A stretch of DNA of 64,000 bases from Candidatus Latescibacterota bacterium (GTDB taxonomy: Bacteria > Latescibacterota > UBA2968 > UBA8231), in assembly GCA_965208105.1 (NCBI GenBank), contig OZ242318.1, forward strand, positions 2,720,001 to 2,784,000. Reading direction: 5' to 3'. The translations under genes and the position numbers were made by a program. This document shows, piece after piece, positions 4,012 through 31,641 of the stretch. Position 1 is the first letter of the stretch, and each line of letters opens with the position of its first letter. Under the pieces are notes generated by a model. It saw only the letters and a list, made by a program, of their open reading frames with translations. It had not been told where the DNA came from and did not search any database.

Positions 4012-4175
4012 TGTTCCGTCGCAGAGATAGGTTGACGAAATTGGGCCGCCGAGGCGCCCGGCTCACAAGGCGCCTGAGCGAGTCGTACCAGTGGTGTACG
4101 GCGAGTGAAGGCAAGGCCGTGAGCCGGGATGGATCGGCGGAAAAATGGCAACATATTTCTGCGACGGGACACTAG
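4008..4175. mobile_element. MITE-like non-autonomous element, copy 1 (CTAG-flanked, ~22-bp TIR)
   Basis: ctagtgttccgtcgcagagata ... tatttctgcgacgggacactag imperfect TIR; internal core homologous to 54387-54553 in reverse orientation. Confidence 0.75.
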
Positions 4176-4352
4176 CGCCTGCTGGCCCGATTTCACCTGA
4201 ATCTGGCCGCCGCCGCGTTGCCCTGGTTCGTATGCTAACTTTCTCGCGCAGGCAACAGCAGCCCTGATCCGCTTGCCGGAGCGTCCAGGTTTCCTGCCAG
4301 TCCCTGCTGAGCGAGTATTCGCCAAGGCCACACCTTCCACAATGGGGAAACA

Positions 4353-17200: not shown

Positions 17201-18200
17201 CGTCGGCCCCGTAACCGCCGCGAAAATAGGCGCGGAAGGATTTCTTGCGGTATTCCCTGGGCCCGGTGTTGCCCTGCAGGCGGAGACCGGCCGGCACCTG
17301 GAAACCGAGTCCTCCTTCCTCGAAAAAGGCCAGTTCGACAAAGCGCTCCCAGGCCCGTCCGGGCCGGTCGTTCACCAGGATTCCGCGTTCGGGGTCGTGC
17401 AGATTGGCCGGATCGGTGAGAACGGCCATGACCGGCAGGGCGTGCTCGGCGCCGACAAGGAATATCCGCGCCACCACGGTGCTGGGCAGGGCCCCGGCGG
17501 CAAAGGAACGTGCCTTGAAAACCACCGTCCGGGTTATGGAGACCGGTCCGCTGTAGAGGGGAGAAGAGGCGGTGGGATCGGAGCCGTCCAGGGTATAGCG
17601 CACTTGATCGCCGGAGTCTGCCGGCTGCGCCGAGACCGCCGCTGCATCGTCGAACATGCCGCTGGCCGGGGCTATTGCGGGGGGACGCACAAAAGTGCTG
17701 AAGCCACGGCTGTTCGCCGCCCCGGGAGTGGGCTCGGGCATGTAGCCCCGGGAGATATCATTGGAAGGACGGCCATAGGAGACATCCCGCAGTTGCTGCG
17801 GAAAAGAGAGGCTGTCCACCAGGCTCGTCCCGTCAGCGGCGATGAGGACGACCTGCTCGCCGTCTTTGCTGAGGCGAAAGGGGAGATGGTCGGCTCCGGC
17901 CTCGGGCTCGCCGTCGGCGTAGAGCAGGCGGTAACCCCCCGCCGGTACGGTGGTGCGGTGGGCCTGGCCCGCGGGGATCTGCCAGAGGGCTTTGTCGGGC
18001 CAGTCGTCGACAATGAAGTATCCGGCCAGATCCACCTCGGCCTCGCCGCGGTTGTGGATCTCGATCCAATCCTCGTATTGGCCGCGGGGGCCGGCGTGAG
18101 CGGTCACGTTCGAAGCCATGATCTCGTTGAGGGACAGGCTCGACCGGGCCGCACCGGGAAGCAGCAGGAAGAACAGGATGAAGGTGTTTCGCCCGTACAT
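14265..18200 (-). CDS. Large secreted protein: lamin-tail domain, Fn3-associated domain, CotH kinase, beta-helix, FlgD-like CTD
   Basis: LNEIMASN...DWIEIHN (LTD), RYTLDGSDPT, GLRLQGN...KKSFR (CotH), WTIWDAD, DTDG/DDGID beta-helix repeats, QNYPNPFNPST. Confidence 0.85.
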   Translation of the reverse strand: MYGRNTFILFFLLLPGAARSSLSLNEIMASNVTAHAGPRGQYEDWIEIHNRGEAEVDLAGYFIVDDWPDKALWQIPAGQAHRTTVPAGGYRLLYADGEPEAGADHLPFRLSKDGEQVVLIAADGTSLVDSLSFPQQLRDVSYGRPSNDISRGYMPEPTPGAANSRGFSTFVRPPAIAPASGMFDDAAAVSAQPADSGDQVRYTLDGSDPTASSPLYSGPVSITRTVVFKARSFAAGALPSTVVARIFLVGAEHALPVMAVLTDPANLHDPERGILVNDRPGRAWERFVELAFFEEGGLGFQVPAGLRLQGNTGPREYRKKSFRAYFRGGYGADDLEYPLHPGDWVTRFNRLVLRSGYDDSLEPTERFTNRGGTLLHDPLASELWSRTGGLTPRSRFAVLYLNAEFTGIYDLKQNVDEDFVQDHLGYEAIDLVRTRWDSTELVHGDKDKWDAMLRFFADHSLVDDDLLASASCYLDLDNFIDLQALVHAIHYRNWAYGVYAFREKDPDRPWQWTIWDADRTFDNADWNGFTTLFNPLNRELDRLLTKRLLANQSFRTRFINRFADLFNTTFSGPQVQVLIDSLAQTIAAEIPAEVERWDSSVATWERNVGLMEDFVHRRPVVVRRQMEEFFELDGQALLTVEVEGPGEVQVNTVVPSAYPWSGTYFLQVPLPLQARPAPGHRFAGWSDPQLPDQPAITLTPAADLKVKALFLPAVAAGISAELVAPQSVPAGRQFPYVVRLRGPDGGIEPTEQSPMQVRFSGVRADTAIAIKRGAGTGVGLMAERGFVLEVGNEAVASASRDIAVSARPVKVHAGRLPVGEVVWDAGADHLVTGDITVPDNTHLILEAGAWVAVGARVNFFVRGRVSARGTAAAPVVLTSADWPEPWGGMEFTGAEADFRYCMVLNGGGDHTRGMWHTGRQHIFFGKLNSTFEFDQCFFLNSPGKVFGCSNSVASISNSVSSFVHHGGEFVLTLLSYRDSHFMNLPNDDGIYEEDIDTDGLHVDYVNARFPRYSVIDNCYFVTGKDDGIDHHGARLQVSNCWIEDFAHEGIAASGGDTLRIFNTVALNNDQGFEAGYTEYEYDDGPHVFIDHSVAVGNNVGLRIGDDYNWDGWTYRDKMTVTNSVLYGNGDNVLNFVHLIDGPLEGALDISHSLTNDPEFDGRDGNIAGIPRFDARYFLLPDSPGFSAGVGGVPLGRADSTVIVAANSVLEPAAGPGLPCRFVLEQNYPNPFNPSTRIEYILPRAGRVSLSVFNLLGQRVADLHENTPQGAGFHRFVLNASHWPGGVYFYRLRLDHGSHRRLQQTRKMVLVK

Positions 18201-18399
18201 TTTGGCCTGGACTTCGAAGCGGCAGCCGCTTCCCGGCGGAAATTTCAGGACCGCTTTTCAGGGAGAAAAGGAGATTTTTCGTACTTCGAGTGAAGCGGGC
18301 ACAGCTCTTCCCGCCGGAGTGGCGGCTCACCTTCGAACAACTGCCACGAACCTAGCAACAACAAACATGGCAGTCAAGAAAGGAAGCACATGGCATGGC

Positions 18400-18489
18400 T
18401 CATAACGTCTTGCCGATTTGCCAACCGCCAAGCGGTTGCTGAAGGCCAAGGCGCGATCGGCGCCGCAGCGCAACCCCGATGTGTTACAT
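18400..18489 (-). repeat. attC site A (distal)
   Basis: + strand TCATAAC...aaccgccaagcggtt...GTTACAT. Confidence 0.8.
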
Positions 18490-18509
18490 GATATGCTCAA
18501 CCAATTCAA

Positions 18510-18860
18510 TCAATTGTCTTCATCTACGGCGAGATCTACAAGGAGTTCCAACTCTGTCGTCGATCCACGCACCCAGGTATCCTTCTTGAACTGTTGATGA
18601 AAGGCATCAATCTCATGCTTTGACTGCTTGACCACATGGCGGGCGCGCTGCAGGTCTTCGGACCGCATGTACGAGAGGAGATATACCTCGTCATTTAACG
18701 TCAGCAAGAACCAGGATTCGACTTTCACTCCTTCTTCGCGTAATGTAGCCAACGCTTCGTCCTTGCGCTCGTTTATGGTGCTTGCCCATGCTACCACCCC
18801 ATCCTCAGAATTCTCCTTAAGCCTTCTCAATGTTGCCTTTACGTCCACGTCAACCTCCAT
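18510..18860 (-). CDS. Cassette 1: DUF6176-like protein
   Basis: Single ORF between attC A and B; EALATLREEGVKVESWFL...HEIDAFHQQFKK pattern recalled from DUF6176. Confidence 0.6.
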   Translation of the reverse strand: MEVDVDVKATLRRLKENSEDGVVAWASTINERKDEALATLREEGVKVESWFLLTLNDEVYLLSYMRSEDLQRARHVVKQSKHEIDAFHQQFKKDTWVRGSTTELELLVDLAVDEDN

Positions 18861-18874
18861 GTTTTCGGCATTTC

Positions 18875-18970
18875 AAGTAACGTTCCCGCCGCTTGTGAAG
18901 CTGCCGGAGCGAAGCGGAGGCAGTTTGGTCCGGAGTGCCGCAGGCACGGAGCACAAGCGGCGTGTTACAC
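18875..18970 (-). repeat. attC site B
   Basis: AAGTAAC..cgccgcttgtg...cacaagcggcg..GTTACAC (perfect 11-bp inner stem). Confidence 0.88.
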
Positions 18971-19085
18971 GTTGCCGTGGCCGGGGGAGGGAAGGTTCTG
19001 CCCAAACAGTAAGGGCGCTGCCTCTATCAAAACAAGAAGACTTCCATAGAGATTCTTGCCAAATGAGCCATTCAGCGGGCACCTT

Positions 19086-19980
19086 TTATCCTATCTGCTG
19101 ACGCACTGCAGAGATGATGTTTTTCATCAACATGACGTTGGTCATTGGGCCAGTGCCTCCAGGTACGGGAGTGATCATGCCTGCAACCTGCACAGCCTCA
19201 TCGAAGTCCACATCGCCGCACATCTGACCGTCCACGAAATTGACACCGAAATCGATCACCACTGCGCCAGACTTGATCCACCCACCCTTGATCATCCTGG
19301 CTTGACCTACGGCCGCACACAGGATATCGGCCGTGCTGCACACCGTAGCCAGGTCCTCAGTACGTGAATGGCATATTGTCACTGTGGCGTTTTCTCTTAA
19401 AAGCAGAAGAGCCATCGGCTTGCCCACGATGTTCGAGCGACCTACAACTACCACCAGCTTACCTTGGAGTTCCACATCGTACCGCTTAAGGATCTCTAAC
19501 CCTCCGGCGGGCGTGGCCGGTACAATAAATGGTCCGACCATAGGTGGCCGACCCACAGGCGCCACTTGGGCCAGTCCTCCAGTGTTCTCTGGATGCACAC
19601 CGTCTACGTCCTTGCCTGGAGACAACGCATCTTTGACAGCTGCCTCGTCGATTCCCTTGGGCAGGGGCTCTTGAATCAAAATGCCATGTACGGCCGGGTC
19701 GGTGTTTAACTTGGCAACCACGGTCACAATGTCATCTTGGGTAGAAGTATCTGGTAAGGCGTGGAGTTGGAAACCCAATCCTTGATTGCCAAAAGACTTC
19801 CCCAGAACATTGGCATAGCTGACCGAGGGCATAGCTGACCGAGGCCCGATCCTCCCCGGCACGCAAGACCGCCAGCGTTGGCTTATCTCCGTGCTGCTCT
19901 GCGAAGGCGGAAACCTCCGCTTCGATCTCCCTACGCATTGATTTTGCCAGCTTGCGGCCATCCAGGATCTTTGCAGCCAT
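19086..19980 (-). pseudogene. folD: Cassette 2: bifunctional methylene-THF dehydrogenase/cyclohydrolase, frameshifted by a 16-bp tandem duplication
   Basis: MAAKILDGRKLA...ASVSYA in one frame, then VHGILIQEPLP, KDVDG, VGRSNIVGKP, ITPVPGGTGPMT in another; ggcatagctgaccgag repeated at 19812-19827 and 19828-19843. Confidence 0.88.
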
Positions 19981-20035
19981 CTTAACCCTCTCCTTCCCCC
20001 CTCTCAGGTTAATCTCTGTAAACGTTTTGGCAGCC

Positions 20036-20668
20036 CTACAGTTTGCTTACCACGAACTCGTAAACCTCGTCGCTCAGAGCTGGTTTGCTTTCCAGCAAAG
20101 CGTCCAGCTTGGTCTGATTCTCCTTGACGAAAGCTTCGTCGTTGATCCAGCTCAGGTTGATGAGAACATTAAGAGCAGCACTGCGCAGCCCAATCTCGGC
20201 CATCAACACGGCTACCCCAGCGTCGCTGACTACGTTCGTGTTGCCCTTCTCGGCCGCGGGACGACACAAGTCCATCACCCGGATGCATGCCTCAGCTACC
20301 TGCATTGGAACGTCAGCAGCAGCCTTTAGGGCTTCCTCCATCGCCGCAGCACGGGCTGCCTTCTGCTCATTGGTTTCGCCTGGCATCTTCATCGCTTGGG
20401 AGACTTGGGTATAGGCATGGATGTCGGCCTCCAGCAGATCTGTGAGCAGACGGCGTAGTTCTTCCGACTGCTCCAGCAGGCCTGCGATGTCCTCTTGGAC
20501 ACCGGCGTACTGCTTCTTACCGGTGGTCAGATTGCAGACCATGCTGATCAGGGCAGCGCCCAGAGCTCCTGATAGAGCAGCCACGCTGCCCCCACCTGGA
20601 GTTGGTGCGGAACTTGACAGTTCATCCAGGAAGATCCTCACGGGCTTGTCGATCAATCTTTCAGTCAT
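20036..20668 (-). CDS. Cassette 2: formiminotetrahydrofolate cyclodeaminase/cyclohydrolase family protein
   Basis: LSSSAPTPGGGSVAALSGALGAALISMVCNLT, KGNTNVVSDAGV, ALNVLINL (FTCD_C family). Confidence 0.9.
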   Translation of the reverse strand: MTERLIDKPVRIFLDELSSSAPTPGGGSVAALSGALGAALISMVCNLTTGKKQYAGVQEDIAGLLEQSEELRRLLTDLLEADIHAYTQVSQAMKMPGETNEQKAARAAAMEEALKAAADVPMQVAEACIRVMDLCRPAAEKGNTNVVSDAGVAVLMAEIGLRSAALNVLINLSWINDEAFVKENQTKLDALLESKPALSDEVYEFVVSKL

Positions 20669-20732
20669 TGTGTACTCCTTCTGGCCACCTCATCAGTCTA
20701 TGATCATCGAGGGGGTAGTAGGCCACGGTTTC

Positions 20733-20822
20733 GTATAACGTCTCACAATTCACGAGGTCGCGGATGCGACTTGCCGAAGGCCAAGTGCCGAATGGCGCGC
20801 AGGGTGAATTGCTGTGTTATCG
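20733..20822 (-). repeat. attC site C
   Basis: GTATAAC..caattcac...gtgaattg..GTTATCG. Confidence 0.88.
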
Positions 20823-20890
20823 GTTGTGGATATCTGAGTACATGGTTGATACCTCTTGGCCACTGTGACATGTGGACCGCAGCGATGGCA

Positions 20891-21415
20891 CTACTTAGAT
20901 TCGGCGTCTTCAATGAGACGAAAGCCCATCTTAAGGTTCATGGATTGGGACGCACAATTCTTCGAACTAAAGCCAGTACGTATAAACCTATAACCCTGTG
21001 AGAGCGCGTAGCTTATACCCTTCCACTTCAACGTAGTGGCGATACCTTGCCGCCTATTTTGGGGTCGTACCCCGGTCATGCACTGACAGATTTCGCATGA
21101 AATCCCCTGTGATTTGATCATGTAGCTGTATCCAACATAGTTACTCTCACTTTTTGCTATGAAAATGGTGTTCCAATCATCAAATCGTTCCAGGTATTCT
21201 TCTAAGGTCCAATCAGGTTTCACATGGACGACCAGAGCAAGATCGTAGAGACAGAGAAGATGATCAGGATTCCTGCTAGCCTCCTCGGCCAAAGAGGTAA
21301 ATGAAATACCTTGGGCAAGAACTCGTTGGATAGCCGATTCGCCTTGTGACAGATCGACCGTACCCAGGTCAAGCACAGCCTCGAGTTTTGTGGGCTCAGA
21401 GTTGGTAGTGGTCAT
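20891..21415 (-). CDS. Cassette 3: GNAT acetyltransferase
   Basis: MTGVRPQNRRQGIATTLK acetyl-CoA motif; SMNLKMGF. Confidence 0.8.
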   Translation of the reverse strand: MTTTNSEPTKLEAVLDLGTVDLSQGESAIQRVLAQGISFTSLAEEASRNPDHLLCLYDLALVVHVKPDWTLEEYLERFDDWNTIFIAKSESNYVGYSYMIKSQGISCEICQCMTGVRPQNRRQGIATTLKWKGISYALSQGYRFIRTGFSSKNCASQSMNLKMGFRLIEDAESK

Positions 21416-21445
21416 ATGCTATGGTCCTCTATCCATATCCATTGC

Positions 21446-21513
21446 CGATAACGTTTTCCGTGGCCTCGAACCGCGAAGCGGTTGCGCGAAGGCCGGGCAC
21501 GGACGTGTTATGT
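21446..21513 (-). repeat. attC site D (short, 68 bp)
   Basis: CGATAAC..ccgtg...aaccgcgaagcggtt...cacgg..GTTATGT. Confidence 0.85.
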
Positions 21514-22089
21514 GACGTGGGACAACACTTTTCGCGATTTCAATGCTGCAAGTACTTGGGCCATGAGCTCCTCCAAGCTACACCACCCATCCAAAATGAG
21601 ATCGCTGTTGGCCTTGTCTCGGTAGGTATCCAAGTACGGATACCGAGCTCGCTCCAAATAGTTCGACATGTCGTCACGCAGTTTCCTCAGTTTCTCGTTG
21701 GCGGATTGGCTGCTGCTGGAACCGTAGTCCCGCAAGATGCGCCGAGCCATAGCGACGTCAAGAGGCGTGTCGACAAATACCGCTAAATCAATGAGATCAC
21801 GGAAACGAGTGTGACCGCGGCCGAATGGAAAATCCAGAACAATCTGTTTCGCAATTCCTCTTTGCACCTCAGCGACAACTGCTGCGTGCATGCCAGGACA
21901 GTCGAACTCTTCGACGTCACCACCACGTCGGCCCCACTCGTAAAAATCGTCTGGATACACGTTGGATTCGTCGAACTCATCAAACTGAAAGAGAACCGAG
22001 TCCGGCAATTCATCGTGGAGGGCAATCGACAGAGCCGTTTTGCCACCACCAGAGACAGAGTTAACCGAGATAATAAATGGCTTCGTCAT
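21508..22089 (-). CDS. Cassette 4: P-loop kinase (uridine/nucleoside kinase-like)
   Basis: SVSGGGKT Walker A, FVDTPLDVAMARRILRD; TAA stop lies within the R'' box. Confidence 0.75.
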   Translation of the reverse strand: MTKPFIISVNSVSGGGKTALSIALHDELPDSVLFQFDEFDESNVYPDDFYEWGRRGGDVEEFDCPGMHAAVVAEVQRGIAKQIVLDFPFGRGHTRFRDLIDLAVFVDTPLDVAMARRILRDYGSSSSQSANEKLRKLRDDMSNYLERARYPYLDTYRDKANSDLILDGWCSLEELMAQVLAALKSRKVLSHVT

Positions 22090-22125
22090 CGGCGGTCTAG
22101 ACAGGAAGTATTCTCAACTCATGTC

Positions 22126-22209
22126 ACATAATTTTTTCGCCGTGCCCGAACCGCGAATGCGGCTGCGCGAAGGCGCGTCAGCGCCGAAGCCGGGCATGGA
22201 CGTGTTAAC
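22126..22209 (-). repeat. attC site E (R' degenerate: ATT instead of GTT)
   Basis: ACATAAT..cgccgtgcccgaaccgcgaatgcgg...gccgggcatggacgt GTTAACT; same family as G, J, M. Confidence 0.82.
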
Positions 22210-23131
22210 TGCCGTTGCTAAGGTCCATCGACATAGCTCGGCGGATTGCAGTGGATCGAGCTGTATGACTACCACGTCCCAATTCCGTTTGGTGGAATGG
22301 TTTGGGACGAGATCCATCTATGTCTACAAAACCGTATTCCTTGGCTAATTCACCAACAATCAAGATCTGTCCGGTTTTGTTCAGGATCTCGGGATCAGCT
22401 GCCAATGCACGTATCGCTCGCCCCGTGTACTGTGGCGACTCTGTAAACAGCAACTTTTCTTTAAAGATGTACTTCATCACACCCTCGGTTCGCACATAGC
22501 CAGGCCAAAGCGAAACGCATGCTACACCATACTCCTTAAACGTAACTGCCATCTCAATCGCCAATTTATCTGTTGCCAACTTTGAAGCGAGATAGTAGAC
22601 GTCGCCCGGGCCTTCTTGTGAACTATAATTGGAAATATTGACGATCAATCCACTACCTGTATGTATCATGAGCGGTGCGGCATAGGTACTGGCGACGTAA
22701 TGTGAGCGAAGTCCTACATCGTGCGTGGCATCCCATTGTTCGATAGGGTGCTCCCAGAATGGACCTGAGTAGTACACGTCTCTGTGGGCATTCTCATACC
22801 CCGACCAAACGTTGTTCACGAGGATGTCTATATGACCTTGCTCGTCCTCAATCCGTTTGAATACGGCCTTCACCTGATCGTCTTTTCGGTGGTCGCACCG
22901 GCAGGGAATCCCCTTTCCTCCCAAACGCGATACTTCACGGGCCGTGGCGGTCAGAGACCCTTCCACAGGAACGGTCTGGTCGCCTGATTTCATGGTGCGA
23001 CCGGTGATATAGACGGTGGCTCCGGCTTCCCCCAAGGCCAAGGCCACTCCTTTGCCAACGCCTCGACTGGCCCCGGTCACTACGGCGATCTTGCCTGCTA
23101 GTGGCAGGCCGCCTGTCTGACTTTTCGGCAC
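22205..23131 (-). CDS. Cassette 5: SDR oxidoreductase (DHRS1-like)
   Basis: VTGASRGVGKG, ILVNNVW, YLASK, SLWPGYVRTE, ESPQYTGRA; stop lies in the R'' box. Confidence 0.9.
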   Translation of the reverse strand: MPKSQTGGLPLAGKIAVVTGASRGVGKGVALALGEAGATVYITGRTMKSGDQTVPVEGSLTATAREVSRLGGKGIPCRCDHRKDDQVKAVFKRIEDEQGHIDILVNNVWSGYENAHRDVYYSGPFWEHPIEQWDATHDVGLRSHYVASTYAAPLMIHTGSGLIVNISNYSSQEGPGDVYYLASKLATDKLAIEMAVTFKEYGVACVSLWPGYVRTEGVMKYIFKEKLLFTESPQYTGRAIRALAADPEILNKTGQILIVGELAKEYGFVDIDGSRPKPFHQTELGRGSHTARSTAIRRAMSMDLSNGS

Positions 23132-23207
23132 GGCTTTGCCTCCTGCTTATCAGCGTAGTGAAGTGAGAGGAGGAAGCAATAAGATTGTTTTCTCCCCATG
23201 CAATGGC

Positions 23208-23348
23208 CGTTAACGTTGTGCCGGTTTGCGAACCTGGCGCGTCCCGAAGGGCTGGCGCGAGCTTTGCCCTGCAAAGCGAGTGACAGAAGCCAGGTTGCCG
23301 AAGGCCAAGACGGCGAAGGCCGCCGCAGCGCGAAACGTGCTGTCACCC
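23208..23348 (-). repeat. attC site F (long, 141 bp; R'' degenerate GAC)
   Basis: CGTTAAC..ccggtttgcgaacctggc...gccaggttgccgaaggccaag...cgcgaaacgtgct GTCACCC. Confidence 0.75.
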
Positions 23349-23382
23349 GCTGTGCGGATAGGCTCTCCTACCAAGGTCCGGT

Positions 23383-23859
23383 TCATGGCCTTGAATGAGC
23401 AAGAGCTTGATTAGTAATTGTCTGCTGATTCCGAAGTATGAGATCCCGCTGCTCAGGCCAGAGAAAAGCTGGCAGATTCTGAATCGGGTGCCACCACATA
23501 CCAGTGTGCCATTCGCTATCCGTTGGAATGCCGTCGATCTGTTCAGTTAAAAAGAGGAAATAGTGAATGATCAACCATAAGTCTCGATTGTAGGAAAGCC
23601 GCTCAAGGACGTCTAGCCTGCCCAGGAGCCTAACCTCATCCAAGCCGGTTTCCTCATGAATCTCGCGGATCGCGGCGTCGACAACGTCCTCTCCTGACTC
23701 CACACCGCCTTTGGGTAGGACGAACTCCTCGATGGACTTCTCGCGTGCTAACGCAACAAGCACATCACCTTCGTCGATGCGGACGACAACCCCTCCGCTC
23801 GTCTGGCGCTCAGGGATTCCGGCGGGTCTTCGATACCAGGAATCGTCGATTACTGTCAT
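23383..23859 (-). CDS. Cassette 6: NUDIX hydrolase
   Basis: Nudix box LPKGGVESGEDVVDAAIREIHEETG. Confidence 0.9.
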   Translation of the reverse strand: MTVIDDSWYRRPAGIPERQTSGGVVVRIDEGDVLVALAREKSIEEFVLPKGGVESGEDVVDAAIREIHEETGLDEVRLLGRLDVLERLSYNRDLWLIIHYFLFLTEQIDGIPTDSEWHTGMWWHPIQNLPAFLWPEQRDLILRNQQTITNQALAHSRP

Positions 23860-23913
23860 CTAGTGGCTCGTTCGGAATCTCAGGAATGTTTCGATTTCCA
23901 CAGAACGCATTGC

Positions 23914-23995
23914 GGGCAACGTTCTCGCCGTGCCCGAACCGCGAATGCGGTTGCGCGAAGGGCATAGCCCGAAGCCGGGCATGGACGTGTTATAG
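23914..23995 (-). repeat. attC site G
   Basis: GGGCAAC gttctcgccgtgcccg...gccgggcatggacgt GTTATAG. Confidence 0.88.
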
Positions 23996-24039
23996 GAAAT
24001 GCCAGCTGATGCGCCGAAGTAATTCTCAGAGGATTAAGC

Positions 24040-24612
24040 CTAACCCCTAATCTGGATTTCCCAGTTCGATCTGTCCATAACATAGATCGCGCCCTCCCAC
24101 CACTTATCAGACCGGAGTAGGCACTTCTCCCTGATTTCGGCCAGCCTGAATCCAAGACGTTCAGGTGTTGCCCGACTTGCCTGGTTGACAGTCGCAGCGC
24201 AGACCGTCACTGTGCCCAAACGTAGCTCCGTAAATGCAATATCAAGTAGTGACTTGCAGCACTTGGTTATGATCCCCTTTCCTCTGTAGGATTTAAAGAG
24301 CCAGTAGCCAAGGTCCCCAGTATCTCCGACTTTGATTCCAGAAATCCGACATGTTCCAGCGACTTTCCCTCCTAGTTCGACCGCCCCTCCGAGCCGGGTG
24401 GAGGCCTTCAGGGCTTCGTTCACACGATCAATCTCCGCATGGAGGTCCGCAATGTTTTCCATCGTGTTGATCGAATGAATCCAAAATAAGTCATCTTTCT
24501 CATTTTCGATCAGGTTATATAACTTGGCAACATCAGTCTTGGAATAGGGCCTGATGCACAGCCCATCCTCGACCTGAATGGTTTGCGTGCAATCGTATGT
24601 AGTTGCGGCCAT
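24040..24612 (-). CDS. Cassette 7: RimJ/RimL-type GNAT acetyltransferase
   Basis: LGYWLFKSYRGKGIIT, NQASRATPERLGF. Confidence 0.88.
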   Translation of the reverse strand: MAATTYDCTQTIQVEDGLCIRPYSKTDVAKLYNLIENEKDDLFWIHSINTMENIADLHAEIDRVNEALKASTRLGGAVELGGKVAGTCRISGIKVGDTGDLGYWLFKSYRGKGIITKCCKSLLDIAFTELRLGTVTVCAATVNQASRATPERLGFRLAEIREKCLLRSDKWWEGAIYVMDRSNWEIQIRG

Positions 24613-24669
24613 GAGATCCCCTCAGTCAGGAGGTTTTAAAAGATCGCATATGTCCAAAATTTGGCTTTC

Positions 24670-24755
24670 CTATAACGTTTGGCCGGTTTGCGAACTTGCC
24701 GAAGGCAAGTTGGGCGAAGGGGCGAACGCCCCGAGCCGCAGACGGCCTGTTATGC
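24670..24755 (-). repeat. attC site H
   Basis: CTATAAC..ggccggtttgcg...cgcagacggcc..GTTATGC. Confidence 0.88.
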
Positions 24756-24812
24756 GGTCGTAGGGGTTCGAGGTCTCCAACCAGACGCGGGCGGCCACAT
24801 AGCATCAGTTCT

Positions 24813-25631
24813 TCACTTGTTCTTGCCCACTGTCAGGAGATGCAGGCTCACGCCCAGAAGTACTGACTCTTCTTCTATCAAGCGGAGGGCTTCCAGAATG
24901 ATCTCTTGCCGTTCTGGGTCTAACCAACGCTCGTCGAAATCCCCCAAGAGCCACGCTGGCCCTTCTAGCCCGACGGTTCTCAAATGATTAAATCCCGCTT
25001 CTTCGATTTCCTCTTGTAGTTCCTCTGGCCTGTGGAAGTATGCTGTCGTGAAATAATGGGGGTCTTCCTTCGGATTAAGGTGTTTTCCATCTCTCAAGTC
25101 TCTTTCCACAATTTCACGAAACTCTGGATCAGATAAAAAACCCCGTTTCAATCCGTCGAGAAGGGATGCGAACCGTGAAATGGCAGCACAACAAACCAAG
25201 CCACCCTTCTTTAGGACTCGGCGAGCTTCCTTGAGCGCCTGGATCCGATCCGATCGATCTGGAAGGTGATACAGCGGTCCAAGCAGGAGCACTACATCCA
25301 TCGATTCAGACTCGAAGTCAAGCTCTCTGGCGTCTCCCTGGCTGATGCTGGCAAGAAGTGGTCCGCCTTCCCGGGTCTTGGCCTGCTCCACGTGGAGGGG
25401 CACAATGTCAATCAGATGGACTTTGTACGATTCTTCTGCCAGCCAAAAGGAGTAAGCACCTGGCCCTCCTCCGACGTCCAGGATTTGAGCCGGTGGAGGC
25501 GGTAAATATCTCAGCAGAACTTCCTTCGTCCTTTCGAACTCCACACGGGAAGTTCCCTCGGCCAGGCGAGTCGCCTCGTCTTTGACAGTCTCGTAATGTC
25601 TGACCACCTTCGGATCCATCAGTTGCTCCAA
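24813..25631 (-). CDS. Cassette 8: class I SAM-dependent methyltransferase
   Basis: ILDVGGGPG motif I, GDARELDF, LLLGPLYHL, RVLKKGG. Confidence 0.9.
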   Translation of the reverse strand: MEQLMDPKVVRHYETVKDEATRLAEGTSRVEFERTKEVLLRYLPPPPAQILDVGGGPGAYSFWLAEESYKVHLIDIVPLHVEQAKTREGGPLLASISQGDARELDFESESMDVVLLLGPLYHLPDRSDRIQALKEARRVLKKGGLVCCAAISRFASLLDGLKRGFLSDPEFREIVERDLRDGKHLNPKEDPHYFTTAYFHRPEELQEEIEEAGFNHLRTVGLEGPAWLLGDFDERWLDPERQEIILEALRLIEEESVLLGVSLHLLTVGKNK

Positions 25632-25688
25632 TACTGGGCGTCTGCCCGCTACGACGATAAATTAAATGACCCTTCGAACCCCTATGCC

Positions 25689-25778
25689 GCCTAACGGTTT
25701 ACCGGTTGCCGAACCCGCGTAGCGTGTTGCCGAAGGCCAAGCGCCGAATGGCGCGCAGCGTGAATTGCTGTGTTATAC
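25689..25778 (-). repeat. attC site I (apparently chimeric)
   Basis: GCCTAAC...ttgccgaaggccaag...gtgaattgctgt GTTATAC; right half like site C, left half like site K. Confidence 0.8.
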
Positions 25779-26350
25779 GACGGCATCTTCACCAAGACCC
25801 TCGACAATGTCGGTCACAGCGAAATCTGGATGTGTCAATACAATCCACGATGGTAAACCCAATCGCTTCCATAGCGCGAAGGGATCCAAGTCTGAAATTC
25901 GGCTCACGAAAAGTGAAATCACGGTTCCATGGGCAACCGCCACCACGTTCCTTTGTGCGAATTTGCGTAGTACTTCCTCAATGGCCTGGGAAAATCTAGT
26001 GTGAGCAGCGTCCGCGGTCTCGTTGCCTAGAACCAGCTCAGTCGGCCGCGAGAAGAGATCGGCGATCGATCGAAGGTCGATTTCTCCAGAAAATCAACGC
26101 CCCGACGGTCGTGCTCATGTAACCCGTCGACCTCGTGAAGCGGCACTTCGAGAAAGGAGGCTATGATCTCCCCAGTTTGGGTGGCCTTTGGCTCGGGACT
26201 AGTGACAACTACATCTGGGTCGCATTGTGACAATCTTTTCGCAAGCGACTGAGCACGATCTCTCCCCTCGGGTGAAAGTTGCCACTCACGAGCAGGAACT
26301 GCAGATTCAATCTGAGGCAGCGAATGCTTTACCAGGGTAAGACGACTCAT
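25773..26350 (-). pseudogene. Cassette 9: histidine phosphatase family protein, frameshifted
   Basis: LVKHS..SPEPKATQT..LHEHDR in one frame; IADLF..GNETAD..VAHGTVI..GEDAVV* in another, ending TAA in the R'' box; shift at the GATC repeat ~26063-26072. Confidence 0.82.
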
Positions 26351-26381
26351 ATGTTGAAGTTCGTCTTCTCAAAAGGCTGTC

Positions 26382-26464
26382 GTATAACGTTCTCGCCGTG
26401 CCCGAACCGCGAATGCGGTTGCGCGGAGGGCGAACGCCCGAAGCCGGGCACGGACGTGTTAGCG
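26382..26464 (-). repeat. attC site J
   Basis: GTATAAC gttctcgccgtgcccg...gccgggcacggacgt GTTAGCG. Confidence 0.88.
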
Positions 26465-26526
26465 GATGGCTGCTCCGAAGTGGCCTGCCGGGATGGCAGG
26501 CCACAACACCGCTAATTCGGTGGTTC

Positions 26527-27402
26527 CTACCACCGCCTTCTGGTACGTGCCAATCCTCTCTTGGTAATACCAATACTCCCAGTCCATTCTTCTCTGTGCA
26601 GGGCGGCCAAGCTGTCTACTTCCAGTATGAGTTCCTCCAGCGCCTTGAGACCTTGATCCGGTGCATCCAGAAGGATTCGCTTTAGCCGATGAGCGAAATC
26701 AGGAGGTTTCAGATCCATCTCATCGACGATTTCGTCCAGCCTCTTGATGGGTTCCGGGACCGGCAAGTAAATCCGGTTGAGGCCCAACATCGCGCGGACC
26801 AAGCGCTTCTCAGCATCTACAATCGCGTCGTAGAGTCCGAGGATATCACCTCTTGCAAGCAGCATATCCACGTTGCTGAATAGCCGCCCAAAGTCCAAGT
26901 TTCGTTCCAGCATGACCAGAGTGAGTCCATCAGGGTATGCGTCTGCCCGTGACTTCCAATCGAAAGCCAAGCTTTGCCCTGCAACTGGGACAGAATGTTG
27001 GACGGAATACAACCTCAGCTGTGCGTCCTCGTCTGGGTCGCAACGGTTGATCACCCGATCCAGAAAGTCCTCCATTGTTGAGACCAGGAACGTGCTTGTA
27101 TGTGCGGGAAACCCCGAGAACTCCATCTGCTCTTCCCACTCAATATCGTCCTCATCCAGGCACTTGAGCTCCGCGCCACAGCTCCGGACAGAACTCACTC
27201 GCTCTTCCTCGGTAGGTGCCGCAGAGTAGTACACGTCAATCTCAATATCTGAAAACTCGTCTGCGGTACCTCTACCAACGGAACCAGCAACCATCACAAC
27301 TTCTGTCTTGGGGTTGTTCGAGTAGGCGTAGGCAATCTTCTTAGCAAGATCAAAGCGCCACTTCGTGGCAGGGTTCATGGTCGACAATATCTCGTGTGCC
27401 AT
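26527..27402 (-). CDS. Cassette 10: Pol-beta-type nucleotidyltransferase domain protein (DUF4037-like)
   Basis: GSVGRGTADEFSDIEI motif followed by a helical C-terminal domain (LNRIYLP). Confidence 0.72.
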   Translation of the reverse strand: MAHEILSTMNPATKWRFDLAKKIAYAYSNNPKTEVVMVAGSVGRGTADEFSDIEIDVYYSAAPTEEERVSSVRSCGAELKCLDEDDIEWEEQMEFSGFPAHTSTFLVSTMEDFLDRVINRCDPDEDAQLRLYSVQHSVPVAGQSLAFDWKSRADAYPDGLTLVMLERNLDFGRLFSNVDMLLARGDILGLYDAIVDAEKRLVRAMLGLNRIYLPVPEPIKRLDEIVDEMDLKPPDFAHRLKRILLDAPDQGLKALEELILEVDSLAALHREEWTGSIGITKRGLARTRRRW

Positions 27403-27446
27403 GGGCGACCAGGACGGTCGCCCGTACTCTTAGCGAGCAGCATTTC

Positions 27447-27537
27447 CGCTAACGTTTCGCCGGTTTGCGAACCCGCACAGCGGGTTGCCGAAGGCCAAGG
27501 CGCGACCAGCGCCGCAGCGCAAAACGTGCTGTTAAAC
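27447..27537 (-). repeat. attC site K
   Basis: CGCTAAC..ccggtttgcgaacccgc..gcgggttgccgaaggccaaggcgc...cgcaaaacgtgct GTTAAAC. Confidence 0.88.
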
Positions 27538-27547
27538 GACGTGCTAC

Positions 27548-28246
27548 TCACTCCCCGCAAGAAATCCCATGTTCGCCGAGGATCAAAGAGGAAACGACAC
27601 CATTGGTGCTCTTGCTTCGTTTTCGGAGCAACTTGACGTGATCCCGGTGTGGATCTTCACACTGTCCTCTATCCCATTCCACTTGGAACCTGTACCGACC
27701 TGTTTCTTTGACGAGGAAGGCTTCATGAGGTCTATGCCAAGGAAAAGGAGCTGTGGTAAGACTCTCCCTTGTGAAATTGGGTTGCGCAGCAAGCTCGACT
27801 ACGGTCCAATCTTTCACGTCTGGTGCCAGGACCAGTCTTGCTGCAGATCGCAGTGACTTAAAAGTGAAGCCATCCGCATCTCGTCGTATGCCGCTGTGTC
27901 CAGACAGGCGACCTCGATCGGCAAGGTGATACCAACGGGCGATTTTGGGTCTGCGCGGATTTCGCAGATCGTAAATAGTGATTTGGTCCATCATAAAGAC
28001 TATCAAGTAATGTCCGTAATGAGCATAGCCGTCTACGTTGAAGCCGATCTCCGTTTTTACGCTGCCAGCGACATGCAGGTCCGTAGAGTCATTGAGGATC
28101 ACGACGTTGAACTGTCTTCTAACAGGTTCGGGACCGGCGAAGGTGTCGAAAATGAAAAGATCGTCGAATGCGTAGATATCCAGATCATGATCTGCATGGA
28201 TGATACTGGGCAGGACTAGATAACCGACAAAAACCCAGCGTTTCAT
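27548..28246 (-). CDS. Cassette 11: hypothetical secreted protein
   Basis: Fills the cassette; N-terminal MKRWVFVGYLVLPSIIHA resembles a signal peptide; no family recognised. Confidence 0.65.
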   Translation of the reverse strand: MKRWVFVGYLVLPSIIHADHDLDIYAFDDLFIFDTFAGPEPVRRQFNVVILNDSTDLHVAGSVKTEIGFNVDGYAHYGHYLIVFMMDQITIYDLRNPRRPKIARWYHLADRGRLSGHSGIRRDADGFTFKSLRSAARLVLAPDVKDWTVVELAAQPNFTRESLTTAPFPWHRPHEAFLVKETGRYRFQVEWDRGQCEDPHRDHVKLLRKRSKSTNGVVSSLILGEHGISCGE

Positions 28247-28278
28247 TCACAGTCCCTTATAGTCATGTCTTGCATGTC

Positions 28279-28368
28279 GTTTAACGTTTCACGGTTTGTG
28301 AACCCGCGAAGCGGGTTGCCGAAGGCCAAGGCGCGATTGCGCCGCAGCGCAACACCGTGCTGTTGTGC
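28279..28368 (-). repeat. attC site L
   Basis: GTTTAAC..cacggtttgtgaacccgcgaagcgggtt...cgcaacaccgtg..GTTGTGC. Confidence 0.88.
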
Positions 28369-29055
28369 GACGTGAAACCATCTCTCACGCAACTGCGTTT
28401 TTCGCTATCCGAAAGATCTGACTGGAATTTTCGATGAAGAACTCGCTGAAATCGACGACGGCACGTGAACGTTCGAAACCCTCGTCGTGGAGGTAGAAAC
28501 GCACCACCTGCTGGGGCCAAAGCGCGACGACCGTCCAGGGCAGAAGCTCGCATTCTTGCGAGCATAGCCGACCACCTCCTGTTGCGTAGCATCGCAACAA
28601 ATTTTCCAAGTACTGCAGTTCAGGGACTCTTGTTGCGGACCACCGAAAATCTTCATAGTGGTCAATTGGGACTGGCCAACCGCACGCGACTCCAAGAAAA
28701 TGTGCAAGATCAAGAGTTCGCGGCGCCAATCGGGCATGGTCCCAGTCAACAATGCTTGCGACGATGTCGCCAGCAAAGCGGCAATTGAAATGGCAGTAAT
28801 CGCCGTGAATAGGCTCAGAAGATAGACCCTCCCACCGTAGCCGACTCATCTCTCGCCAAGCGATTTTCAGATGTTCTTCGAGCATGTTGATTGTTTCTAG
28901 AAGATCGGACCCGATTTGCCCTTGAGCTTCCTCTAGCCGGGTGGCGGACAACTCAAATGGATCATTCTTCCATCGTTTTCCGCCAATTTGCAAGGTTTTC
29001 GTAATTCGGTGAAGTGCACCCAGGCTCTTCGCGCAGCTGCTCACTTGTGCTGCCG

Positions 29056-30217
29056 CTAGTGCTCTGTTAAGGATTCAGGCTTGTACTTTTTCGTACATGT
29101 TGGTATCATGGGGACATATGTCCATTTTTCTGGGAGGGTCCTGCCATGTGCCTCCATGCTCGAACACCGGATGCTGCCGAATCGAAAGAACTGGGCCGAT
29201 GGCTGAAGCGGCCACGCAATGCCGTACAGATGCGACGAGGGCAATTGATCTCCCTCAGTGCCCAGGGTATGCGGGTCCAGGAGCTGTCGGCGACGCTGCA
29301 TCTGCACGAGGAATACATCCGCTCCCTGGTCCGACGATACAACGAGGAAGGGCTGGCGTCGCTTCGCACGCGAGCCCACCCGGGGCGCACCCCAGCGCTG
29401 ACGCCCGAAGACGAGTCCGTGGTGGTGGAGATCGCCAAGATGCCCCCTCGGGCTTTCGGCCAACCCTTCAACCAGTGGTCGCTGCGCAAGCTGACCGACT
29501 GTCTGGTCGGGCGCAAGATGATCCCCAAGGTCTCGCACGTGACCATCGCCAAGGTCTTGGACCGGCATAAGGTCACCTACCAACGTACCCGCACCTGGAA
29601 GGAGTCGAAGGATCCGGATTTCTCCTCGAAAAAAAACGCATCGACCGCCTCTACCGGCGTGCGCCGAAGGACTCGGTCGTAGTCTGCTTCGACGAAATGG
29701 GGCCCGTGCAGATCAAGCCCCATGCCGGCTCCTCCTGGGCGCCGCAGAAGCACCCGGTGCGGCACCGAGCCACCTACACCCGGCACGCCGGGGTCAGCTA
29801 TTTCTTCGGCGCCTACAACGTCCACGAGGACGTCCTGTGGATGCATCACAAGCGAAAGAAGCACGCCTCGGAGGTGCTCACTTTCCTCAAGGCCATCCGG
29901 CACCGCTACCGCAAGGCCCAACGCATCTACCTCGTTCTGGACAATTTGTCGACGCACGCGACCCCAAAGATTCGGCAATGGTGTCGGCAGCATCGAGTCT
30001 CCCTCGTCTTCACCGCTACCAACGCCTCCTGGATGAACCGTCTCGAATGCCATCTGACCGCCGCCCACTACTTCGTCATCAAGAACAGCGACCCAAGGGA
30101 CCATCGAGACATCGGCCAGCGCATGCAGGAATACCTCGTATGGAGAAATCGAAACCAGGACGATGCCAAGCTCGCCAAAATACAAAATTCAATGCCCACT
30201 CTTTAACAGCGCACTAG
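29056..30217 (+). mobile_element. IS630-family insertion sequence in a CTAG site (TA duplication)
   Basis: TIR ctagtgctctgttaa / ttaacagcgcactag; two-ORF DDE transposase. Confidence 0.93.
29146..30206 (+). CDS. IS630 transposase (ORFA HTH plus ORFB DDE, joined by a probable -1 frameshift)
   Basis: WSLRKL, RTWKESKDPDF, A8 run at 29629-29636, then CFDEMGP, VLDNLSTH, SWMNRLE. Confidence 0.9.
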
Positions 30218-30622
30218 CTGAGGCGAATATCCGCGTCCGACATAGTCGAACAGCGTGAAATGGCGATCGGCGTGCCGACAAACGCGCTGACCATCTGTTG
30301 TCTGGTGAATCTTCGGAGTTGGCGAAAATTCCCCACGACAAGATTCCTGAAGGTCCAGACAGAAATTGCGCTCTTCCGCGGATTCGACGAACTGAGGCCA
30401 TTCCTTGAGGAAGAACCTACCTTGCGCCGTTGAGAACTCTACGACGAGACGGTTGCCCCATACAACTAGCTGAGTCACCCTCTTATTTGTGTCGCCCAGC
30501 CCGTACTCGCTTAGAACACGACTGAGAACGTCAAGGTCACTATAGGAAAGGTCGTAGTTGAATTTCTGCGGCAAATTGTAGGAGTCCCCTTGGACTTGAA
30601 GCTTGTCCTAAGATTTCATGTC

Positions 30623-30705
30623 GCACAACGTTCTCGCCGTGCCCGAACCGCGAACGCGGTTGCGCGAAGGGCGCATGCCCGAAGCCGGGCACGGACGTGT
30701 TATGC
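30623..30705 (-). repeat. attC site M (proximal)
   Basis: GCACAAC gttctcgccgtgcccg...gccgggcacggacgt GTTATGC. Confidence 0.88.
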
Positions 30706-30723
30706 GATACTGGCGTGCGACGT

Positions 30724-31236
30724 CTATTCCTCACCACTCCAGTAGTTTCCCGTCAGACCTTCTTTGACCTGTGTCCACACTGTCAGACCCTCACGTTCTT
30801 CACTCAAAGGTCCCTTATCAACCGCCAATGTACCACTCAGCGAAACCTTATCGCTGTCTGGATAATAACACGTGTCGAACTCAGGATTGTTTGATATTAC
30901 CAGATACTCGAAGTCGCTGTCGCCGACGTTTGTCAGCTGGTGCGCAACGCCAGGTTGACATTGAACTGCGTCGCCAGCTGCGAGATCGAGTGTCCCTTCC
31001 GCGAATCGCATCGTGGCTGATCCCCTGATCACGAGATAAAACTCCCACTGTGTCCCGTGCGCATGATAGGTGAAAGCCTTCTTCCCAGGTGGGACAATGT
31101 AGTTGTCTACTTCGAAGGGCCTCTTTGCTTCCAGGTCACCAATAGCCTTGCTCAAGCTCCTCTCGATTTTGCAATAGCGACTCTTGGGAGACTCGAGTCT
31201 CCTCTTTTCAATTTCCTCTATGTTGATCTTCTTCAT
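30724..31236 (-). CDS. Cassette 13 (first): cupin domain protein
   Basis: PPGKKAFTYHAHGTQWEFYLVIRG...GVAHQLTN, CYYPDSDK. Confidence 0.88.
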   Translation of the reverse strand: MKKINIEEIEKRRLESPKSRYCKIERSLSKAIGDLEAKRPFEVDNYIVPPGKKAFTYHAHGTQWEFYLVIRGSATMRFAEGTLDLAAGDAVQCQPGVAHQLTNVGDSDFEYLVISNNPEFDTCYYPDSDKVSLSGTLAVDKGPLSEEREGLTVWTQVKEGLTGNYWSGEE

Positions 31237-31288
31237 ACCTGTTCCAACCTCTGTTGATCTTGAAGGTTACCTTCCGTGCCATCCGCCA

Positions 31289-31332
31289 GTTCGCATAACT
31301 ACTTTTAATATGCGAACTATTGGTTCGCATAT
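31289..31332 (-). promoter_or_regulatory. attI-like recombination site at the head of the array
   Basis: Minus strand ...catattaaaagta GTTATGC; no attC-family body behind the core; palindrome ATATGCGAAC-N5-GTTCGCATAT (31308-31332). Confidence 0.6.
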
Positions 31333-31641
31333 ATGCCATCGCGAGTTACTTATGTGACAAAAAGGTACCTGGTAGCGCAAACAGTCGCAATCAAAATCCC
31401 CAAGGCGTATGCTTTACGTAATTCTTTGAAGTAGTTTGGATAGCACGACTTTCCCGAGGTCCAGCACACTTGGCACGCATTTCATTGGCGAGGGTCACAT
31501 CCGTTTGGCCTGGGAAAACGCACGATGCGGAGCGGATGGAGCACATAAAGGGCGTTACTAGGGAGTCGGTCTGGGGACAGGCCGTGGGGCGCTACGGGGT
31601 GTGAGTGCCTGGCACAGGATCGAAGCGGCTACTGCTATGCT

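Follow-up and report, generated by a model that had tools for sequence, protein, structure and literature searches.

Long cassette-specific R arms in a Latescibacterota integron-type array and a likely cognate integrase without the I2 domain

An integron-type array of 13 gene cassettes, with genes on the − strand, occupies positions 18400-31299 of a 64,000-nt stretch of DNA from a Candidatus Latescibacterota bacterium (the window; GCA_965208105.1, contig OZ242318.1, 2,720,001 to 2,784,000). The two ends of every cassette form an inverted repeat, and the question raised by this locus is what these repeats represent and which kind of recombinase acts on them. An earlier note on this DNA had regarded them as non-canonical, and had proposed that the array is served by a recombinase with an extended, Xer-like specificity of about 11 bp. 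The analysis reported here suggests, with a probability of roughly 0.6, that the array belongs to a distinct integron lineage with long R arms and a Xer-like integrase that lacks the I2 domain.

Based on the list of open reading frames (ORFs) and a reading of the sequence, the sizeable ORFs of the array are all on the − strand, with 13 imperfect palindromes of 68-141 nt (the attC sites) lying between them. On the + strand these palindromes start with ..TAAC and end with GTTA.., which identifies the + strand as the bottom strand of attC. The AAC triplet is found in 12 of the 13 sites, as is the GTT triplet; the sites have in common an inner stem of 9 bp that shows compensatory changes, and their centre is branched. 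The cargo (GNAT, NUDIX, methyltransferase, etc.) is typical of integron cassettes. Each cassette was delimited by the GTT of one attC and the AAC of the following site, with the last one running to 31299, and positions in the terminal repeats are counted inward along each end, starting with the GTTA core (positions 1-4). RNAalifold did not find a consensus structure in the first attC alignment, and the attC model used here (R1) therefore scores sequence only; a scan of the window at Rfam gathering thresholds gave no matches. Three structure-based attC finders, also home-made, were dropped and enter no count, one energy-based (too noisy) and two of local-alignment and zipper type (few of the 13 known sites recovered).

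With anchored scoring that allows bulges, the cognate ends of all 13 cassettes pair over 13-25 nt (median 16), whereas non-cognate ends pair over a median of 5 nt, and none of 5000 partner permutations matched the observed pairing sum. Pairing of at least 12 nt does occur in 27 of 156 non-cognate pairs because the ends have a common consensus. Long, cassette-specific pairing had been claimed before with an upper bound of 27 nt, which is 25 nt as measured here, and the three end pairs quoted as examples (cassettes 2, 8, and 12) are present in the sequence as given. Ungapped x-drop scoring yielded 15, 8, 18, 15, 15, 2, 11, 10, 13, 9, 14, 16, and 9 nt for the cognate ends against a non-cognate mode of 4 nt, the lower values (8, 2, 10, 9, 9) being due to an inner mismatch or bulge in those cassettes.

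The repeats follow a pattern of GTTA-NNN-G8, a 1-3-nt imperfection at positions 9-11 with a bottom-strand G.T pair at position 11, and then T12 and G13. G8 is present at 26 of 26 ends in the window. Positions 5-7 accept any base, and only two of the 13 gene-strand R' boxes (GTTAGGC and GTTAAAC) fit GTTRRRY, which places the array outside the RYYYAAC/GTTRRRY consensus. At position 11, 12 of the 13 R' sides have A on the gene strand, and hence T on the + strand, which in 9 cassettes is opposed by a G. A G.T pair of this kind is possible only on the + (bottom) strand, the antisense strand of the ORFs, and bottom-strand G.T pairs outnumber those on the top strand by 13 to 3 in the window. G8, the free choice at positions 5-7, the two fitting cores, and the wobble at position 11 had been pointed out in the earlier note and hold on counting.

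Folding of the circle junctions with DNA parameters gave means of −35.1 kcal/mol on the + strand and −32.3 kcal/mol on the − strand, and in 12 of 13 cassettes the + strand folds more stably, in line with the proposal that the wobble favors the strand antisense to the ORFs. Array-context and non-cognate junctions both average −28.2 kcal/mol, and the circle junction is more stable than either by 7 kcal/mol in all 13 cassettes. The idea that the stems close in the excised circle also agrees with the layout, as the cassette ends are the two halves of each attC outer arm and meet only there.

The same arms recur elsewhere in the genome, where R1 has ~95 matches, comprising a 50-kb array at 2.01-2.06 Mb (the main array) and several smaller clusters; several of the arrays are without an integrase. 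Across 64 putative cassettes genome-wide, positions 1-4 are GTTA, and positions 5-7 are identical between cognate ends at frequencies of 0.77-0.86, compared with 0.33 when the ends are non-cognate. G8 occurs at 62/64 and 60/64 ends, while position 11 is G on the R'' side in 50/64 and A on the gene-strand R' side in 55/64; G faces T at this position in 36/64 cassettes, next to T.T at position 10. Cognate identity exceeds the background out to about position 17-19, and pairing reaches at least 12 nt in 46/64 cassettes. The end-pairing pattern is also present in 29 cassettes from five relatives. Bottom-strand G.T pairs outnumber top-strand pairs by 58 to 8 in the genome and by 27 to 3 in the relatives, and end pairs with at least 14 matches in 16 positions number 24 versus 2 in the reversed-sequence null for the genome's own arrays and 17 versus 1 for those of the relatives.

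Canonical integrons served as controls. In a pseudomonadotal array with a canonical IntI (L137), 24 of 29 cassettes pair over exactly 12 nt (range 11-18) and the pairing stops sharply there, with positions 8-12 variable and covarying, and a second such array (L133, 30 cassettes) has a median of 11 nt (range 6-14); cassette boundaries in both were set from the conserved attC ends. Inspection by eye gave 7, 8, 8-10, 12, and 12 nt for the five cassettes of a class 1 plasmid array, and 8 nt for each of two cassettes next to a canonical IntI from the phylum of the window (L124); direct-repeat scans beside canonical IntI genes in three further regions of this phylum (L121-L123) did not find an array. 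Cassette-specific pairing of ~11-12 nt is thus a general integron property. Pairing beyond the 7-bp R box is therefore unremarkable, and its treatment, along with that of cassette specificity, as a non-canonical trait was overstated. The suspicion that a general attC property was being described is only partly right, as the window stems are longer than those of both controls (median 16 versus 12 and 11; Mann-Whitney p about 2e-7 and 1e-7), and G8 and the position-11 wobble are absent from L137 (by eye). It is the extra stem length, G8, and the position-11 wobble that are special to the window array. Beside canonical IntI genes (16 regions), pairs with at least 14 matches in 16 positions number 23, versus 22 in the null. 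A recurrent bottom-strand T.G at position 10 was seen by eye in L133. Apart from the window, the ~12-nt arm of canonical arrays points to a working R arm in ordinary integrons that may measure about 12 bp and so exceed the textbook 7 bp; the accessible parts of two sources describe R boxes as 7 nt only (PMC5027507, PMC3053210).

A likely candidate for the cognate recombinase gene that the earlier note called for was found beside the main array, where it is broken, and it is intact in a genome of the same genus (G107). The best-scoring model for this gene (P0001) is TIGR02249 (integron integrase), with 234.9 bits against a cut-off of 265 and model positions 180-234 unmatched, and no TIGR02249 match above the cut-off was found in the genome. 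P0001 has 18 aa where VchIntIA (2a3v) has 60, and lacks a 43-residue block relative to IntI1, while the catalytic residues and the C-terminal SPLDAL align. It is thus without the IntI-specific domain (the I2 helix, ~42 aa) that marks the IntI family. The cut-off of NF040815 (220 bits) is missed by P0001 (211.9) and its G107 orthologue (213.1). The orthologue in G107 is 91% identical and free of stops, that in G040 is 76% identical and also intact, and further copies occur in other genera, with two families represented; the absence of the domain in P0001 is therefore not simple decay.

The attC family recognized by R1 lies directly beside the domain-less gene in 5 of 5 relatives checked, and has no matches beside four canonical IntI genes of the same phylum, in which canonical IntI occurs in 17 of 168 genomes. 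The domain-bearing IntI are united in a single clade (support 100) in a tree of 56 rows, and the P0001 clade (seven rows, support 100) falls outside it among other domain-less relatives. The likely cognate recombinase of the window array, judged from sequence, is an IntI-like relative without I2 and Xer-like in that respect, and the Xer-like reading gains real support from it. Canonical IntI genes and domain-less paralogues also stand side by side, in several copies, in G042, a genome of this phylum (C1, ~2493564-2495718 and 2158606-2160403), and a canonical IntI adjoins a domain-less paralogue in a Planctomycetota metagenome-assembled genome (MAG; L068, 7385-10830).

The window array itself ends in a putative attI site (31288-31331) with three TTCGCATA-type arms. 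The R arm, AGTTCGCATAAC, occupies 31288-31299 and has its crossover after AA, the next arm (31307-31318) is inverted, and the third is at 31323-31331. The main integron and G107 keep this three-arm site at the head of their arrays, and it presumably functions as attI. Approximately 230 nt beyond it align with the region from attI to the integrase start in the main integron and in the same-genus genome. This remnant (31300-31532, + strand) is homologous up to about the fifth integrase codon, after which the gene is absent, and a profile search of the window detected no integrase match. As the homology stops about five codons into the integrase gene, the window array is a second integron that lost its integrase by deletion. 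With 13 attC sites, this deletion, and the nearest IntI-like gene ~660 kb away, it qualifies as a cluster of attC sites lacking an integron integrase (CALIN).

Two cassettes have copies that end where the cassettes do. The segment 23921-24680 (attC 7 and cassette 7) has a 98.6% identical copy in the main array. Another cassette is 96.9% identical over 706 nt between two families (L127:6626-7305 and L126, reverse strand, 3584-4262), and here the homology stops at the cassette ends and the flanks are unrelated. Both duplicates end at R boxes, which would fit an exchange of whole units between AA and C and gives indirect evidence that the system was active in the past.

Positions 17800-31900 are covered by sponge and marine metagenome runs X1-X15 from several studies, the contigs of which, many of them at 99% or above, are interrupted at the attC repeats. 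The four runs that were mapped contain joints with sides of 20-45 nt, mostly within attC, which may be repeat artefacts. A contig of X1/X2 joins 27471 to 28339 (side 22, 28 other letters) and leaves cassette 11 uncovered, a weak hint, rather than evidence, of a difference affecting a whole cassette. At 19812 (~19810-19845), the window has 16 extra nt, one copy of a tandem duplication in the FolD-like gene of cassette 2. These 16 nt are missing from the contigs of all four mapped runs, and represent either a strain-specific frameshift or an assembly error.

Taken as a distinct lineage whose integrase lacks I2, the array would work as follows. Each terminal repeat is the outer (R) arm of the attC of its cassette, split by the crossover after the AA of AAC, and the arm halves re-join only in the excised circle, where they are predicted to add a 13-25-bp duplex to the bottom-strand hairpin. 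The longer and differently patterned arms may be attributed to a separate lineage with an IntI-like or XerA-like integrase. Without I2, such an enzyme would presumably be unable to use extrahelical bases and may instead read a long, mostly paired Xer-type arm of ~11-13 bp. The conserved positions 1-4, 8, and 11-13 could keep hybrid arms zipped within the array, and the position-11 wobble may help to favor the bottom strand in place of I2. This account draws on the arm anatomy, cassette specificity, predicted energy gain, and cassette-bounded copies observed here, as well as on the association of the domain-less recombinase with the attC family and its conservation.

Several points weigh against it. 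The attC boundaries come from R1, a home-made model, and not from a standard attC model. At 11 of 13 sites the hybrid R arms formed in the array context pair over no more than 2-6 nt, and this is hard to reconcile with an enzyme whose excision reaction depends on long paired arms; excision from the array may be inefficient or follow a different route. Genome-wide, pairing is shorter than 12 nt in 18/64 cassettes, probably owing to missed attC sites or hybrid cassettes, and the excess over canonical arrays is modest (16 versus 12 nt). P0001 has an in-frame TAA at codon 58, and the window array may be frozen, as its own integrase is deleted and the main copy is interrupted by this stop. The tree was made by a quick method and rooted on long Xer branches, with many deep forks open, and the missing I2 domain could also reflect an old secondary loss.

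A broader reading, which is possible but held with considerable doubt, is that integron-like platforms whose recombinases never had I2 are widespread, recombine folded attC sites through a long Xer-type arm with a bottom-strand-only G.T at position 11 as the strand selector, and have been overlooked by finders that demand I2. The phyla and other groups named for it are the window's own phylum, Flavobacteriaceae, Bacteroidales, Ignavibacteriota, Spirochaetota, and others, and such platforms would be either a surviving intermediate on the way from Xer to IntI or something invented in parallel. A scan of the sequence collection retrieved 80 loci with recombinase relatives at 35-60% identity, most of which have the length of the query and are therefore also without the I2 domain. 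These loci were searched for inverted GTT...AAC ends 150-4000 bp apart that match at 13 or more of 16 positions and have an A/G difference at position 11. This signature was found 85 times, against 12 in reversed sequence, and in 38 of the 80 loci; the matches are nearly all of one polarity, and the series begin immediately behind the recombinase gene. Cassettes of 0.3-3 kb alternate with conserved palindromes of 115-190 nt in Winogradskyella, Seonamhaeicola, and a Gilvibacter MAG, where the ends read GTTGGCAATA(A/G)TTA. The ORFs are on the recombinase strand in the arrays of other phyla, and the G.T pair is therefore again on the bottom strand. Three of the flavobacterial or Bacteroidales relatives pass the NF040815 cut-off (244.3, 228.4, and 220.0), a model that NCBI names "site-specific tyrosine recombinase/integron integrase".

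It is only the position-11 signature that separates real from null sequence in these other phyla, as counts of plain inverted-repeat pairs in the AT-rich loci showed no excess (55 versus 53 in the reversed-sequence null). R1 has just two weak matches in the 80 loci and therefore detects only the attC family of the window. A further point that weighs against the main account is that the flavobacterial arrays conserve position 11 (A/G) and T12 but not G8 (by eye), which makes G8 clade-specific. Arrays of Flavobacteriaceae, Bacteroidales, and Ignavibacteriota (L015, L018, L029, L058, L072, L078, L016, and others) lie directly downstream of a domain-less IntI/XerA-like recombinase and in its orientation, with conserved palindromes of 115-190 nt between their cassettes.

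On the other hand, the long stems may be by-products, left by template switching or mismatch correction in the folded or single-stranded circle, which would extend imperfect palindromes outward, or by the birth of cassettes, with an enzyme that needs the inner arm only. The earlier note had raised the possibility that the stems record how cassettes are made, and alternatively that they favor integration of the circle. The broad variation in stem length (13-25 nt), where L137 stops sharply at 12, agrees with this explanation, as does the extension of the stems into a 5' leader that differs in each cassette. However, blind correction would erase a pattern such as the fixed imperfection at positions 9-11, which recurs in the genome (G/T at 11 in 36/64), the relatives, and other phyla, and the mismatches are biased toward bottom-strand wobbles (58 to 8), so that a by-product origin is unlikely. 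It is quite unlikely that the ends are those of an ordinary integron whose arrays were built by a canonical IntI, since lost or acting in trans, beside a decayed domain-less gene. The pairing of 11-12 nt in canonical arrays and of 7-12 nt (by eye) in class 1 cassettes, the stop codon in this genome's gene, and the presence of canonical IntI in 17/168 genomes of the phylum would all be expected in that case. Nevertheless, the domain-less gene is intact, constitutes a separate clade, and is conserved at 76-91% between genera and between two families; the attC family accompanies it (5/5) and not canonical IntI (0/4); and the window stems exceed the controls and carry a G8 and a position-11 wobble that L137 lacks (by eye).

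The hairpins of attC sites are reported to affect translation in class 1 integrons, and ATG occupies positions 11-13 in 29/64 cassettes. A role of GAAATG (positions 8-13) and its partner in mRNA translation alone, through a short upstream ORF or a hidden start and with no part in recombination, is nonetheless very improbable, as this ATG starts the main ORF in only 2/64 cassettes and accordingly belongs to the site itself or, at most, to a short upstream ORF, the partner is 0.4-2.3 kb away on the mRNA, and position 11 is a C.A mismatch on the mRNA strand, so that in 12 of 13 cassettes the antisense strand pairs better.

The individual features of the array follow from low to high coordinates, with attC sites given on the + strand and cassettes on the − strand. 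The last site of the array, attC 1, extends from R' box to R'' box at 18400-18489, and is followed by cassette 1 (DUF6176; 18483-18881), which has 15-nt repeats at 18483-18497 and 18867-18881. Beyond attC 2 (18875-18970), cassette 2 (18964-20739) contains two genes, FolD-like and FTCD_C, between 19-nt repeats (18964-18982 and 20721-20739). attC 3 (20733-20822) leads to cassette 3 (GNAT; 20816-21452) with repeats of 18 nt at 20816-20833 and 21435-21452, and attC 4 (21446-21513) to the kinase-like cassette 4 (21507-22132), where the repeats (21507-21521 and 22118-22132) measure 15 nt and the R' triplet is AAT instead of AAC. Cassette 5 (22204-23214), behind attC 5 (22126-22210), encodes a short-chain dehydrogenase, and its 15-nt repeats are at 22204-22218 and 23200-23214. 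The longest site, attC 6 (23208-23348, 141 nt), has GTC as its R'' triplet, and the adjoining cassette 6 (NUDIX; 23342-23920) has 15-nt repeats with mismatches at positions 3-4 (23342-23356 and 23906-23920).

A second GNAT gene is found in cassette 7 (23989-24676; repeats 23989-24005 and 24661-24676), which follows attC 7 (23914-23995). The methyltransferase cassette 8 (24749-25695), preceded by attC 8 (24670-24755), has 25-nt repeats with one bulge (24749-24773 and 25672-25695), while the histidine-phosphatase-like cassette 9 (25772-26388), preceded by attC 9 (25689-25778), has repeats of 13 nt (25772-25784 and 26376-26388). Next are attC 10 (26382-26464) and cassette 10 (26458-27453), with a Pol-beta-type nucleotidyltransferase and repeats at 26458-26475 and 27435-27453, and attC 11 (27447-27537) and cassette 11 (27531-28285), which has no Pfam match and 14-nt repeats at 27531-27544 and 28272-28285. 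Cassette 12 (28362-30629), after attC 12 (28279-28368), carries an APH-family phosphotransferase gene between 16-nt repeats (28362-28377 and 30614-30629). This gene is split by an insertion sequence (29055-30217, + strand) with HTH and DDE_3 transposase ORFs, which has at least eight near-identical copies elsewhere in the genome, including one in the main integron array (2041413-2042574). Finally, attC 13 (30623-30705) precedes the cupin cassette 13 (30699-31299; repeats 30699-30715 and 31284-31299), which adjoins attI. Flanking the array at its other end, a gene at 14265-18200 (− strand) codes for a protein of 1311 aa that has a CotH domain and a sorting tail for type IX secretion (Por_Secre_tail).

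The gain of the I2 helix is described, in the parts of the literature consulted, as what allowed recombination of folded attC (PMC7790495, PMC8138268), and IntI as having gained single-strand recombination through it while Xer, the closest relatives, are without it (PMC7790495). If the enzymes considered here are active, I2 is not required for cassette recombination, and the origin of integrons could be tested with living intermediates. Large arrays (~95 attC matches in one genome) stand beside I2-less recombinases, and cassettes are common to arrays and families. With active enzymes, surveys of integrons would also undercount whole phyla; the portion consulted of the IntegronFinder 2 preprint calls Bacteroidetes nearly devoid of integrons. 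Within the open-access part of the literature, no report was found of arrays served by a domain-less integrase or of pairing past the R box.

Known systems resemble the window array in different respects. XerC cuts after ATAA, and the arms of Xer/dif, of the CTX phage, and of the pdif modules of Acinetobacter plasmids resemble those in the window (xxTTCGyATAA), with cleavage likewise expected after ATAA. According to the part of the source available, XerC-side arms include AGTTCGCATAA in Neisseria meningitidis, ATTTCGTATAA in Nitrosomonas europaea, and ATTTCGCATAA in Haemophilus influenzae (PMC2731167). The attI R arm at 31288-31298 is AGTTCGCATAA and thus identical to the first, and the end of cassette 2, GTTTCGTATAA, matches the second at 10 of 11 positions. 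The likeness to 11-bp XerC arms asserted in the earlier note is therefore real for these, and is confined to some of the arms because positions 5-7 vary. A pattern search did not find a 28-bp dif-like site built from array arms, and nothing convincing was found for the genome's own dif site; at 399555-399834 of the genome (L005), CATAA-N6-TTATG stands beside another tyrosine recombinase gene (349 aa) and is possibly its site.

Xer/dif also has in common with the window array a recombinase without the extra domain, but differs in its 28-bp arm-spacer-arm site (11-bp XerC arm, 6-bp spacer, and 11-bp XerD arm). The window array has neither this site nor a XerD-type arm; its R arms are 54-129 nt apart in each attC and meet only by folding, and cassette arrays stand at a putative attI beside a dedicated recombinase gene. 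The CTX phage, integrated by XerC only, shows that a folded single strand can be used by a Xer enzyme, as far as the source was available (PMC7790495).

Sedentary chromosomal integrons and CALIN have the same co-oriented promoterless cassettes, imperfect-palindrome attC bounded by AAC...GTT, crossover after AA on the bottom strand, and typical cargo, and their attI at the integrase end has a putative counterpart here. In contrast, the array described here has a likely integrase without the I2 domain, R boxes that depart from RYYYAAC/GTTRRRY (2/13 fit), an outer arm of 13-25 nt versus ~12, an invariant G8, and the bottom-strand wobble at position 11. The closest counterparts of the recombinase are the XerA-like or "integron-like" simple tyrosine recombinases (NF040815; Smyshlyaev et al., 2021), as TIGR02249 and NF040815 are the models with the best scores for P0001 and its relatives. 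The accessible portion of that study reports no cassette arrays for the insertion-less members of its integron-like subgroup, whereas the domain-less recombinases described here adjoin such arrays.

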